Origin: Chthoniobacteraceae bacterium | GTDB lineage: Bacteria; Verrucomicrobiota; Verrucomicrobiia; Chthoniobacterales; Chthoniobacteraceae | Direction: 5' to 3' | Assembly (NCBI GenBank): GCA_031409655.1 | Contig: JANNXQ010000130.1 | Location: 11,130 to 75,129, forward strand | DNA length: 64,000 bases | Shown here: positions 7,252 to 10,894 of the stretch, piece by piece | Position numbering within the stretch: position 1 is the first letter of the stretch | How the letters are laid out: the number at the start of each line of letters is the position of its first letter | Notes under the pieces: generated by a model | The model's input: only the letters and a program-made list of their open reading frames with translations | The model's database searches: none | Told to the model about the DNA's origin: nothing | Position numbers and translations under genes: made by a program

Positions 7252-8007
7252 ATGAAGCTAGGCGTCAATATCGACCACGTCGCCACGCTCCGGCAGGCCC
7301 GCTACGCGGGATCGCTGGACTCGCCCAATGCGGAGCCCGACCTCGTCGCCGCCGCCGCCGCAGCCGAGCGCGGCGGAGCCCAGGGGATCACCGTCCATCT
7401 GCGCGCTGACCGCCGGCACATCCAGGACCGCGACATTACCCGCCTGCGCGAGACTTTGCTCACGAAGATGAATCTCGAGATGGGCAACACGCCCGACATT
7501 CTCGAATTTGCCCTGCGGGTCATCCCCGAGGAGGTCTGCCTCGTCCCGGAGAACCGCAAGGAGATCACCACCGAAGGCGGCCTCGACGCGGTGCGCTCCG
7601 AGAAGCAACTCGCGCCGACGATCAAGCGCCTCCAGGCCCACGAGATTCGCGTCAGTCTTTTCATCGAGCCGTCGCCGGATCAGATCGACGCCGCCCACCG
7701 GCTCGGTGCCGATATCGTGGAATTGCACACCGGCGCCTTTGCCAACGCCACCGGCATCGGGCTGAAAGGCGAACTCACCCGCTTGCGTTCCGCCGCCGAA
7801 TACGCCCACTCCGCCGGCCTGCAAGTGAACGCCGGCCACGGCATCAACTACCTGAACATCCGCCTCGTCCGCACCGTCTCGCACCTTGCGGAGCTGAACA
7901 TCGGCCACTCCATCGTCTCCCGGTCCGTCCTCGTGGGCCTGGAAGCCGCGACCGCGGAAATGCTCGCGGCGATGGGCGGCGTGGAATGGTCCCATCTCGT
8001 GAAATAA
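7252..8007 (+). CDS. pdxJ: Pyridoxine 5'-phosphate synthase
   Basis: LGVNIDHVATLRQAR, TVHLRADRRHIQ, TTEGGLD, ELHTG, NAGHG and ELNIGHSI. Confidence 0.98.
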   Translation: MKLGVNIDHVATLRQARYAGSLDSPNAEPDLVAAAAAAERGGAQGITVHLRADRRHIQDRDITRLRETLLTKMNLEMGNTPDILEFALRVIPEEVCLVPENRKEITTEGGLDAVRSEKQLAPTIKRLQAHEIRVSLFIEPSPDQIDAAHRLGADIVELHTGAFANATGIGLKGELTRLRSAAEYAHSAGLQVNAGHGINYLNIRLVRTVSHLAELNIGHSIVSRSVLVGLEAATAEMLAAMGGVEWSHLVK

Positions 8008-8159
8008 AACGGACCCTCCGCCTCCTCCTCCTCTGAGCGTTTCGCATAGGAGGTGGTGGTGTGATTAAATGTAGTGCCATGCGGGATGCGCGCGATGTCC
8101 CGGAGGGACGCTGGAAACTAGATACCGTGTTGGTCAAGAGAGGAAAAGAAGGGAGGGAT

Positions 8160-9167
8160 TTAAGGGGTCGTGAAGAGAGTGTGATTGGGGTTGTAGTCGG
8201 CTTTGGATTGGAGGAGAGCGAAGGCGGTGCGGACCATTTTGTGGAGGACGGCGAAGACGATGGCCATGGGGGTTTTGCCGGCGGCGCGGAGGCGCTCGGC
8301 AAAGGCTTTGGAGCGGGGGTCGCAGCGCAGCGCGGTGAGGGCCGGGAAGTAGAGTTTGGAGCGCAGCTCTGGGGCGGCGTGGCCGATGCGGGAAGCTTTG
8401 CGCACGGAGGTGCCGCTCTGGCACTGGCGCGGCACCACGCCCAGCCAGGCCGCGACGGAGCGGGCGTTTTTGAAGTGGCGCGGGAGCTCGGCGGCGAGCA
8501 GGCGTGCCGTCTTGCGGCCGCACCCGGGGATGGCCTCGAGGCGGGTGATGTCGGCGGCCAGCTCCGGGCTGTTGCGGAGGTGCGTGGCGACGGCTTTTTC
8601 CAGGCGGGCGAGTTCCGCGGCCAGCCACTTGGCCGAGCGTTGGAGGCTCTGGCGCAGAGCGGGCGCGGCGGGCGCGGTTTCCAGCCGGCGTTGCTCGGCT
8701 TGGAGGGCGACTTCCAGATCGGCCTGGCGGCGCAGCAGTTCGCGCAGGAGGGCTTGGGCGGGCGGCAGCGGCTGCCACTCCTCAAGGGGCTGGGTGGCGG
8801 CCATGCGGGCGATGAGCTGCGCATCGACCCGGTCGGTCTTGTTGCGGCGGCCGAGGCTGCGCGCGAAATCCAGCACGCGGCGGGGGTTGAGCACGGCGAC
8901 GCGGTGGCCGGCGGCTTGCGCGGCCGTGGCCACGGCGAGGCTGTAGGCGCCCGTGGCCTCCAGGGCGATGAGGGCTTTCTCCACGCCTTGCGCGGCCAGC
9001 CAGGCCAGCATTTGCGCGTGGCCGTCCTGGGTATTGGCAAAGCGCTGATGAAGGGTGCGGGGAGTGACGAGCAGGGCGACATCGAGGGTGAGTTTGGCGA
9101 CGTCGATGCCCAGCGCGGGGAGCGTGGCAGGGAGGGTTGGTGGGGAGGATGGAGCAGTTTGCGGCAT
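8160..9167 (-). CDS. IS110 DEDD recombinase/transposase
   Basis: RuvC-like DEDD residues (GIDVAK, LEATG, KTDRVDA), a coiled coil, and a C-terminal Tnp domain with GVVPRQCQSGTS (catalytic Ser). The ORF is intact. Confidence 0.95.
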   Translation of the reverse strand: MPQTAPSSPPTLPATLPALGIDVAKLTLDVALLVTPRTLHQRFANTQDGHAQMLAWLAAQGVEKALIALEATGAYSLAVATAAQAAGHRVAVLNPRRVLDFARSLGRRNKTDRVDAQLIARMAATQPLEEWQPLPPAQALLRELLRRQADLEVALQAEQRRLETAPAAPALRQSLQRSAKWLAAELARLEKAVATHLRNSPELAADITRLEAIPGCGRKTARLLAAELPRHFKNARSVAAWLGVVPRQCQSGTSVRKASRIGHAAPELRSKLYFPALTALRCDPRSKAFAERLRAAGKTPMAIVFAVLHKMVRTAFALLQSKADYNPNHTLFTTP

Positions 9168-9214
9168 GGCTTTTTGGTGGTGGGTGGTGGGGTTGATTTG
9201 GGTGGTGTGCAGTC

Positions 9215-9405
9215 TTGCTTTGAGGCGGCTCTCCGGCGCGGGGCGCAGGCTTGTGTGACGCAGTGCTCCGCGAGTAAACTCCCGGTCTGCCAGATACCGT
9301 CCGGCCTTTGGGCCGGAGAGGCGGCGGGGTCGGGTGCCTTTCTAATTTACAGGCTCAGTGTGACCTCAGCCGGTGACGGGTTACCCGCCCCGCTGCCTCA
9401 AAACG
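9215..9405 (-). ncRNA. Predicted IS110 bridge RNA (target-binding loop and donor-binding loop)
   Basis: The TBL stem (9383-9399 with 9318-9335) encloses UCACCGGCU and AAAUUAG. The DBL encloses ACGGUAUCU (9/9 match to the right end) and CACACAAG (8/8 complementary to the left end). The ends of the RNA are approximate. Confidence 0.85.
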
Positions 9406-9454
9406 GACGCTCTTGGTCTAACACGGCAATCAACACACAAGCCGTTCCCTCCAA

Positions 9455-10894
9455 ATGACAATCAAGCACAGCCATCCCATACGCCTCGTGTTTCCCGGCA
9501 TCCGGCGGACTCGCGCTCAGCCCTCCTCACTCCCGGACGCCGATCCCCACTCTGGTCGTCCAGGGTGCGGCGGGCGCAAAAGCAAACTCCTGGCAGCAGT
9601 GCTCTCCTTCGCCGGCTTGCTGATGCCGCCAGTCGGCGCGCAGGAAGCGACGGCTTGGGCTGTTACCGCGAAGACCGCTCCGGCGGGGTTGCTCGATGTC
9701 GCATTGACGAAGCGCCAAGCCCTTTTCTTCACCCAGCAGCAGGTGGGAGGAAAGGTGATGCCCTTGGTTGGATTCTTCATTGGTGCCGACGGGCTGGCCT
9801 TGTGTCCTCTGACTCCGCTTTCTTGGAAGACAGGTCCGAGGTTCGGGATGGATGACGGGGAAAAGACCTGGCTCCCGCGCCCTGCGGTGCTCGCCGTGTT
9901 TCCCGAACAGGAACTTGCTTTGGTGAAATTCGCCTTCAAGCCGAAGACATGGCTGAAGATTTCCAAAGAGCCAACGCCCGTCGGCACCTGGGTGGCCGTG
10001 CTTTCTCCGTCTTTTGCTCCGAATCCCGTCGTGGGCCCCATCCTGGCCCATCGGGAAATAACCTGGTCATCGCCATTGCTTCCACCGCGCCCACCGGTAA
10101 AGAAGTTCAGCTTTGCCGCCGGTCGCAGTCCCAGCATTGAGAAGGTATTCGTGGCAGGTGCGCCCCTGCTTGACGCGCGCGGGGAAGTCGTGGCGGCATT
10201 CTCCGGATCCCAGCCGATGCCTGGCCAGACTTTGAGAACAGCCAGTCCCCTTGCGGAGTTGCCGATGCGGATTCAGGAGGCTGTCAAGATGGGGAAGCCA
10301 CTGAAGCTTCCGCTCTCCGCCAAGGACTTGCAGTTGGATCCGGCTGCCTTGAGCGAGGAGAATCGCGCGATGGAAGCTGCTCAAATGGAGGGGAACTTCG
10401 CGAAAGGCATGCAGCAAGCGAAAGCACTGGTCGCCAAGTTTCCTGACAGCCACTACGCGCGAACCTCGGAATATGGTTTTGTCTCGAGGGAAGTTGATCT
10501 TGGGGAGGTCAGTGCGCAGGAGTTGGTCGAACTCGCGCAACAGTTTAAGCTTCAGGAAAATGACCCCCCATGGGAAAAGGCCGCCTATTACAGCCGCCTC
10601 GGTGAAGCCCTCGGGCGTGCGAATCGCGTGGACGAAGCAATCGCCCCTTTACAGAAAGCCGACGAACTGTGGCCGCAGCAAATGGCGTGTATGAGCCTGG
10701 CAGTTCTCTTCGAGAAAAAGGGCCAATTGGAAGAGGCCGAGCGTTACTGGTGGCGTGCCACCAGTCTGGATCAGGAGCGAATCGAGTATTGGAACCGACT
10801 CAGCCTGGTCCTTTCAGCACGCCTCAAATTCAAAGAAGTGAGCGAAGTGTCGGATCGTGTCCGCTTCCTCGAGGACCTTTATAGAAGGCGCTAA
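9455..10894 (+). CDS. Secreted trypsin-like (degenerate) domain plus TPR protein
   Basis: Signal-like segment, then GFFIGADGLAL, ELALVKF and AGAPLLDARGEVVA (trypsin-fold motifs lacking catalytic His/Ser), then C-terminal TPR repeats. GC is visibly lower than in the neighbouring genes. Confidence 0.6.
   Translation: MTIKHSHPIRLVFPGIRRTRAQPSSLPDADPHSGRPGCGGRKSKLLAAVLSFAGLLMPPVGAQEATAWAVTAKTAPAGLLDVALTKRQALFFTQQQVGGKVMPLVGFFIGADGLALCPLTPLSWKTGPRFGMDDGEKTWLPRPAVLAVFPEQELALVKFAFKPKTWLKISKEPTPVGTWVAVLSPSFAPNPVVGPILAHREITWSSPLLPPRPPVKKFSFAAGRSPSIEKVFVAGAPLLDARGEVVAAFSGSQPMPGQTLRTASPLAELPMRIQEAVKMGKPLKLPLSAKDLQLDPAALSEENRAMEAAQMEGNFAKGMQQAKALVAKFPDSHYARTSEYGFVSREVDLGEVSAQELVELAQQFKLQENDPPWEKAAYYSRLGEALGRANRVDEAIAPLQKADELWPQQMACMSLAVLFEKKGQLEEAERYWWRATSLDQERIEYWNRLSLVLSARLKFKEVSEVSDRVRFLEDLYRRR

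Follow-up and report, generated by a model that had tools for sequence, protein, structure and literature searches.

The element and its ends

The window, a stretch of 64,000 nucleotides from the genome of a Chthoniobacteraceae bacterium, contains an IS110-family (IS621-type) element at positions 8120-9441. All features of the element described below lie on the minus strand. With both CT cores counted the element is 1322 bp long, and its bounds are the CT at 9441-9440 and the CT at 8121-8120. A single intact reading frame (8160-9167; ORF 9167-8160) encodes a DEDD/Ser recombinase of 335 aa. It is preceded by a left end of about 270 bp that holds the RNA region and followed by a right end of about 40 bp. 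The neighbouring gene beyond the left junction (9455-10894) encodes a 479-aa TPR-containing protein and starts 13 bp from that junction; look-alikes of its 5' region are found on contigs C39, C57 and C123, and weak short matches in one of five relatives.

The ends were placed using five further junctions at contig ends and a separate unitig. In total, the genome contains four left and three right junctions, five of which sit at contig ends, and a CT core is present in all seven. The left CT core (9441-9440) together with the right-donor half (9434-9441) is identical in 4/4 left junctions, and the left-donor half together with the right CT core (8121-8120) is identical in 3/3 right junctions (8120-8128). 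The genome contains at least four copies. Five other contigs break off 135-143 bp inside the element, and over these stretches the ends of the other copies are 99.3-100% identical to those of the window copy. In sequencing runs X1 and X3, which belong to one study and of which X1 may be the source of the assembly, the element forms its own unitig (8119-9444). Its depth in X1 is 84.7, compared with 16.7 and 11.3 for the flanks, as expected with several copies, depth giving no copy number. The preliminary description of this locus had named differing ends in other copies as an observation that would speak against it; the ends agree at every junction, and each of the six minus-strand segments that it quoted was found at its coordinates.

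On reading the ends, long subterminal inverted repeats are absent. Together with the long RNA-bearing left end and the short right end, which are the distinguishing features given in PMC11208160, this places the element in the IS110 group and not in IS1111. A metagenomic relative, L022, contains two copies of the element back to back (1-110 and 240-1611), one in each member of an inverted repeat pair. The genome also contains a piece of another, more distant IS110 gene (C29:5460-5750, 41% identity).

The recombinase

The recombinase matches the Pfam domains DEDD_Tnp_IS110 and Transposase_20 and scores 196.9 bits against NCBIfam model NF033542, for which the cut-off is 140. This is in agreement with the intact DEDD/Ser recombinase that had been read from the frame. 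When aligned to IS621 from the public record, it shows 37% overall identity. Using the functional residues of IS621 given in PMC11208158, the five catalytic residues D11, E60, D102, D105 and S241 correspond to D22, E70, D112, D115 and S251 and are all kept, as are the core-reading residues A61, G63 and N84 (A71, G73 and N94 here). The wedge residues Y273, F274 and L277 are hydrophobic. Among the 12 residues mapped onto IS621, ten are identical and two wedge residues are replaced by other hydrophobics. As judged from its sequence, the protein thus combines the RuvC-like DEDD domain with a Transposase_20 domain carrying the catalytic serine, and we assign it to the IS110 family.

The only relatives with solved structures are IS621 and ISCro4 (IS622; PDB entry 9t56, E 4.2e-52). 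ISCro4 is 88% identical to IS621 (bioRxiv 10.1101/2025.05.14.653916) and is therefore equally distant from the recombinase of the window. A search of plasmids with the recombinase gave best identities of about 37% and none above 60%. A protein search gave 535 matches among 8,000 scored, and among the 120 matches listed there is no name beyond 'transposase'. Searches with the protein found one homologue in 150 other genomes of the family and ten in 400 of the class.

Fold of the putative bridge RNA

The folded core of the putative bridge RNA spans 9218-9403, as delimited by folding and alignment; a search of the region against Rfam gave nothing at E<=1. The segment 9405-9215 folds more steadily than all of 200 shuffled sequences (z -4.17). 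In the unconstrained minimum-energy fold the left target guide is paired and the donor-binding loop is absent, while a fold with two internal loops is obtained when the guides are kept unpaired, at a cost of 9.7 kcal/mol (-80.2 versus -89.9 kcal/mol). RNAalifold applied to eight homologues recovers the target loop only and not the donor loop. The target loop comes from the free fold and the alignment, and the donor loop only from the constrained fold and pair counts.

When the two-loop fold is placed on the alignment of the eight homologues, 84.5% of cells are paired, compared with 33-49% when it is slid along the alignment. Two-sided changes occur in 20 cells against 9.3 in shuffles (reached in 0/500) and are located in both target-loop stems and in the lower donor stem. 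Counted by pairs, such changes do not exceed shuffles (9 versus 6.8; 86/500), and alignment is poor in the terminal donor hairpin, of which 43.8% is paired. Compensatory changes among the eight homologues support the two-internal-loop fold. The two internal-loop hairpins of the preliminary description stand with one qualification: the target loop folds freely, whereas the donor loop is missing from the minimum-energy fold and requires open guides, and covariation favours them by cells but not by number of pairs.

All four A-N4-G motifs of IS621 (A43/G48, A67/G72, A116/G121 and A150/G155), which are protein contacts in the IS621 structure (PMC11208158), are present when the RNA is compared with IS621 in locus L089, the first lying one base nearer to the core than in IS621. 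Unlike IS621, no clear 5' stem-loop is seen, and 9439-9396 folds at only -2.9 kcal/mol. Also unlike IS621, a basal stem possibly encloses both loops; no two-sided changes fall in this stem. Remnants of bridge RNA without an adjoining recognisable recombinase were seen at L002, L083, L095 and L098 in genomes G003, G137, G063 and G156, respectively (tblastn was run for L083 alone).

Donor guides and handshake bases

The left donor guide (9292-9300) is identical in 9/9 positions to the right end of the element (8128-8120), with the equivalents of A116 and G121 at 9307 and 9302. The right donor guide (9250-9257), complementary to the left end (9441-9434), consists of 7 nt plus one extra matching base, with the equivalents of A150 and G155 at 9264 and 9259; it is contiguous, whereas that of IS621 contains a bulge. 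When the 191 nt of 9405-9215 were shuffled 20,000 times with dinucleotides preserved, the left match was equalled in 0.015% and the right 8/8 match in 0.48%, and both jointly in 0/20,000. The donor guides vary along with the donor in the homologues L027, L032 and L033, and L021 has one left-donor mismatch. The left donor match of the preliminary description is thus upheld by both the chance test and covariation. The right one is present and improbable by chance, but L022 does not share its eighth base, which falls beyond the canonical guide span.

Next to the guides are two pairs of bases that correspond to the handshake guides, which in IS621 pair with the non-cognate DNA (PMC11208158). The first base of the target-loop handshake guide (AA, 9340-9341) pairs with donor position 7 (T), and the donor-loop handshake guide (CC, 9248-9249) pairs with target positions 7 and 6 (G and G). 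Across the twelve loci with both ends readable, the window's included, the first donor-loop base is Watson-Crick to target position 7 in 12/12, L032 having A:T in place of C:G, and the first target-loop base pairs with donor position 7 in 11/12. Read from these alignments, the handshake pairing is mostly conservation, with a single compensatory event.

Target guides and insertion sites

The left target guide lies within 9368-9376 and probably comprises 9375-9368 (CACCGG followed by CU), as judged from its register relative to IS621 in L089, a variable alignment column and the table of junctions. The equivalents of G48 and A43 are G9377 and A9382. Between the first motif and its 9-nt guide, IS621 has a single linker base; the comparison through L089 gives one base and 8 nt here. 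Counted from the conserved A-N4-G motif, the linker is probably U9376 and the guide probably has 8 nt rather than 9. The right target guide (9342-9348) reads CT-AATTT over 7 nt, compared with pairing over 4 nt in IS621, and has the equivalents of A67 and G72 at 9355 and 9350. It matches the right flanks at C93, C251 and L022 in 7/7 positions and that at L021 in 5/7.

At the window copy itself the matches to the flanks do not rise above chance. The target-loop matches that had been noted there are present, but a left match of 6/9 occurs in 96.5% of shuffles and a right match of 6/7 in 18.8%, and the target reading from the window alone thus amounts to a guess from position. The guess is borne out at the other copies. 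Three of the four left junctions in the genome read CCACCGG-CT and two of the three right junctions read CT-AATTT, the window copy being the exception on both sides. The same left sequence, in the same repeat, is found at the metagenome loci L021 and L022, whose proteins are 89.7% and 84.8% identical. The 13-mer target occurs empty four times in the genome, compared with a mean of 0.08 for 100 permuted 13-mers. The bridge recombinase of IS621 type with a left-end bridge RNA that the preliminary description proposed is in this way supported by copies that it had not seen.

Its target, TCACCGG-CT-AATTT, needs correction in one base. Position 1 is C in three of the four left junctions in the genome and in 3/3 in the two metagenome loci. 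The best genome-wide matches to the 14-mer spelled by the guide are four empty sites with C at position 1, and the version with T occurs 0 times. A target of 13 bp would account for this, the alternative being that position 1 forms a U-G wobble.

The base after the conserved G was also compared in six elements with short guides (the window type, L027, L083, L084, L085 and L095, of which L083 and L084 look decayed). It is U, A, A, G, C and A, respectively, and is Watson-Crick to target position 1 in one of the six, with a wobble possible in one more. By contrast, the full 9-nt guide is found in a sister element from the host family (G100), with 7/7 matches at two sites and 6/7 at a third, and in five distant elements (six loci) the left register extends one base outward and matches there in each.

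Guides and targets covary among homologues. From the twelve loci, the window copy, L021 and L029 were left out as near-duplicates of L022 and L038, and the same search windows were used for cognate and non-cognate pairs; guides were not taken from L023-L025, L028, L031, L036 and L037, which have no comparable pair of ends. The nine distinct homologues score 123/144 with their own targets, against a permutation mean of 99.2, a value reached by 2/362,880 permutations, and seven distant homologues alone gave 2/5,040 in a symmetric run in which the row for L027 was on the wrong strand; since kin are not independent, these permutation figures overstate the case.

The target is a REP-like repeat

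Insertion sites are found at hairpin feet, with another hairpin following. On the opposite strand, the target consists of a TTAG head and then a hairpin arm. A 12-mer of the target occurs 58 times in 5/5 relatives, often in inverted pairs, against two control matches. In G012 a gene for a Y1 tyrosine transposase (Y1_Tnp) lies between two inverted pairs of the repeat (L080:406-852 and L081), and the encoded protein matches only Y1_Tnp and the NCBIfam IS200/IS605 model. In the genome of the window, none of 13 Y1_Tnp loci has the repeat within 1.5 kb. A dispersed hairpin repeat, inverted pairs and a flanking Y1 transposase, as read from these sequences, are the features of REP/REPtron systems, a nature of the target that had gone unrecognised in the preliminary description, which gave its sequence only. 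The Y1 transposase genes at L080 and L081 are also enclosed by a second hairpin family, in a REPtron-like layout with a TTAG head.

Several distant homologues have GTAG-headed hairpins in the same position relative to the site. In a distant clade (L029, L030, L034, L035, L038 and L039) the left target guide, which matches one base farther from the core, ends in CC or TC and not in CT, and the targets are GTAG-headed hairpins.

With most sites at a hairpin foot, the protein could itself read the REP hairpin to choose its site, the apparent target guides being incidental or captured target DNA, and in ISPpu10 a stem-loop at the target does raise integration. The same study finds that ISPpu10 requires base pairing and that the stem only helps (bioRxiv 10.64898/2026.03.19.712850). 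Here, the guides track the targets base for base among the homologues, in split, opposite-strand order, and the right flank at C93 fits the guide without a second hairpin. We consider site choice by the protein very improbable and retain choice by the guides.

We give slightly better than even odds to a broader reading, in which the sub-clade of the window has lost one base of the left guide (a 6+CT+5 layout) and IS621-like elements across the class track host-specific REP heads through guide sequence and register. If this is true, the short-guide and 9-nt-guide elements would be natural pairs for testing what sets target length.

Three further repeats were noted. At C73:26160-26174 (minus strand; L109) an intact short-loop repeat has an extra TAT before the CT core, which equals the last three bases of the right end of the element and is possibly the footprint of an imprecise loss via the shared CGG. 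A recurrent excision footprint was rejected after a search of 151 genomes, in which the other exact match (G137) and 12 sites with any 3-base insert all lie outside the repeat. Two half repeats in the genome, at C20:12929 and C286:28876, are missing the first hairpin and start at the position of the CT core.

The flanks of the window copy

Among the sites in the genome, that of the window copy is the poorest fit to the target guides. Its left flank (9442-9448) is off-target, matching the 8-nt guide register in 4/6 positions, and lies outside any REP hairpin. Its right flank (8058-8119) is the downstream half of the REP-like repeat (an AGTTT variant with the second hairpin); it shares 90.6% identity with C20 and 81.2% with the empty site on C218. 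The two flanks may not belong together. Across four runs no contig spans both junctions, and the contigs, which drop rare forms, include no circle junction and no empty-site joint that skips the element. The empty-site sequence proposed in the preliminary description does not occur in the genome (0 occurrences) and, with no contig of the four runs spanning both junctions, may never have existed.

One explanation, to which we give somewhat less than an even chance, is that contig C130 was misjoined, the flanks of two copies having been brought together across a collapsed 1.3 kb repeat so that the true partner of the right flank would be the half repeat with which C29 ends. Besides the lack of a spanning piece in the four runs, the flank depths in X1 are unequal (16.7 and 11.3) and five other contigs end 135-143 bp into the element. 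The second hairpin of the right flank (of the CTCCGGGAC type) follows a short-loop hairpin in the empty repeats of contigs C29, C67, C73, C218 and C247, and C29 ends in a short-loop hairpin; the long-loop repeats (C5, C126 and C150) carry another type of second hairpin. In addition, acpS comes after pdxJ in G001, G002 and G004, as it does in G012 judging by a short match; here acpS is on C29. The repeat type and the place of acpS would also fit a rearrangement between copies. Against a misjoin, each junction exists separately in X1, so the off-target left junction is real whatever its partner. Wider synteny is too scrambled to decide the pairing, and half repeats without the first hairpin also exist free of the element (C20 and C286).

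We put at about one in two the chance that the join is real and arose from recombination between copies, from a half-match rearrangement by the recombinase or from insertion into a repeat that already lacked its first hairpin. Half-match insertion and excision have been reported for IS621 (10.64898/2026.08.31.748434 and 10.64898/2026.08.14.744561), ISPpu10 tolerates mismatches in the distal left guide (bioRxiv 10.64898/2026.03.19.712850), and the left flank of the window copy retains three core-adjacent bases. The separation of pdxJ and acpS in this genome also implies that rearrangement has occurred nearby. The absence of the empty site from the genome and of an element-skipping joint from the four runs argues the other way. 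The two genes, adjacent in the relatives, are found here at 7252-8007 of the window and C29:7578-7961.

Predicted circle junction and proposed mechanism

At the circle junction predicted from the ends, the right end would supply a -35-like hexamer, TTGACC (8132-8137), with 5/6 matches to consensus. The best score for both sigma-70 hexamers is 8/12 (-35, 5/6; -10, 3/6), and IS621 also scores 8/12 in the same scan. No consensus -10 was found across the predicted junction in the clade of the window (8/12 at best), the hexamers reach 10/12 in 6/7 distant homologues, and a scan of the linear element found no promoter site. L021 and L022 retain the weak hexamers of the window copy, suggesting that the promoter departs from consensus.

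The weak -10 could instead mark a silent relic that has the right anatomy but makes no RNA, its junction promoter having decayed. The reading frame is intact, the ends of the other copies are 99.3-100% identical over 135-143 bp, and L021 and L022 have retained the hexamers; we regard a relic as improbable.

As far as sequence can tell, the element is a real and intact bridge system of IS621 type; independent sites validate its guides, and the target is REP-like. We are highly confident that it is an intact, recently multiplied element whose bridge RNA guides read the ends of the element itself and, as target, a REP-like hairpin foot. The sequence-based grounds for this are the intact enzyme, the ends, at least four copies, the agreement of guides and sites, the covariation and the repeat target; transcription, the circle and the chemistry are carried over from IS621 by analogy. 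On excision the two ends would join via one CT core to give the donor ACGGTAT-CT-TGTGT, and the bridge RNA would be made from the left end. The recombinase would bind both RNA loops, with the donor loop pairing with the joined ends and the target loop with (C)CACCGG-CT-AATTT at the foot of the REP-like hairpin of the host family. The DEDD residues and Ser251 would then cut beside the CT, and the handshake bases would favour strand exchange.

Comparison with known systems

The element resembles IS621 of Escherichia coli (PMC11208160, PMC11208158) in its DEDD and Ser recombinase, left-end RNA, CT core, four A-N4-G motifs and handshake bases, in the order of the guides (left target, right target, left donor, right donor) and in inserting into REP sequences (PMC1525189). 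A single base separates its left donor from that of IS621. Other differences from IS621 are the left target guide of probably 8 nt instead of 9, the TTAG head of the repeat and the weak -10 at the junction. ISPpu10 of Pseudomonas putida (bioRxiv 10.64898/2026.03.19.712850) likewise targets a REP, often in inverted pairs, with the left half of the target formed by a stem-loop arm. Its positions are numbered 1-6 on the left and 1-5 on the right around CT, so the 6+CT+5 layout proposed here has a precedent, in another host and on another repeat.

The repeat is close to the GTAG-type REPs and REPtrons of PMC3733652, which are tetranucleotide-headed hairpins in inverted pairs flanking Y1 tyrosine transposase genes and are reported there in Verrucomicrobia. 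Its head is TTAG, a word that occurs 0 times in the main text of that paper, and in comparison with a RAYT the flanked protein scores as the NCBIfam IS200/IS605 model.

REP targeting by IS621 and other IS110 elements has long been known (PMC1525189), and the guides of 32,190 bridge RNAs, with variation in guide length, have been predicted in bulk (bioRxiv 10.64898/2026.10.21.760802). In the readable supplementary files of PMC11208160 the 14-base donor occurs, with at least 18 and at least 59 matches, and the target 11-mer occurs 0 times. A gap falls inside the left target guide in one row of a supplement, and the alignment there probably includes short guides already. Our literature search found no published description of this element and none that joins IS110, bridge RNA and Verrucomicrobia. 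The bioRxiv supplements, with 72 elements screened and 32,190 predicted, may already include the clade. The mechanism, REP targeting, variation in guide length and even the donor sequence are thus already in print.

What the locus adds is a natural set, fully decoded, of donor, target, bridge RNA and a recombinase that is 37% identical to IS621. Screens for genome editing could possibly use it as a further orthologue, one whose right target guide is long by nature and whose handshake bases already fit the target. For the family, the strategy of targeting REP sequences is seen in one more lineage, with the mechanism unchanged.
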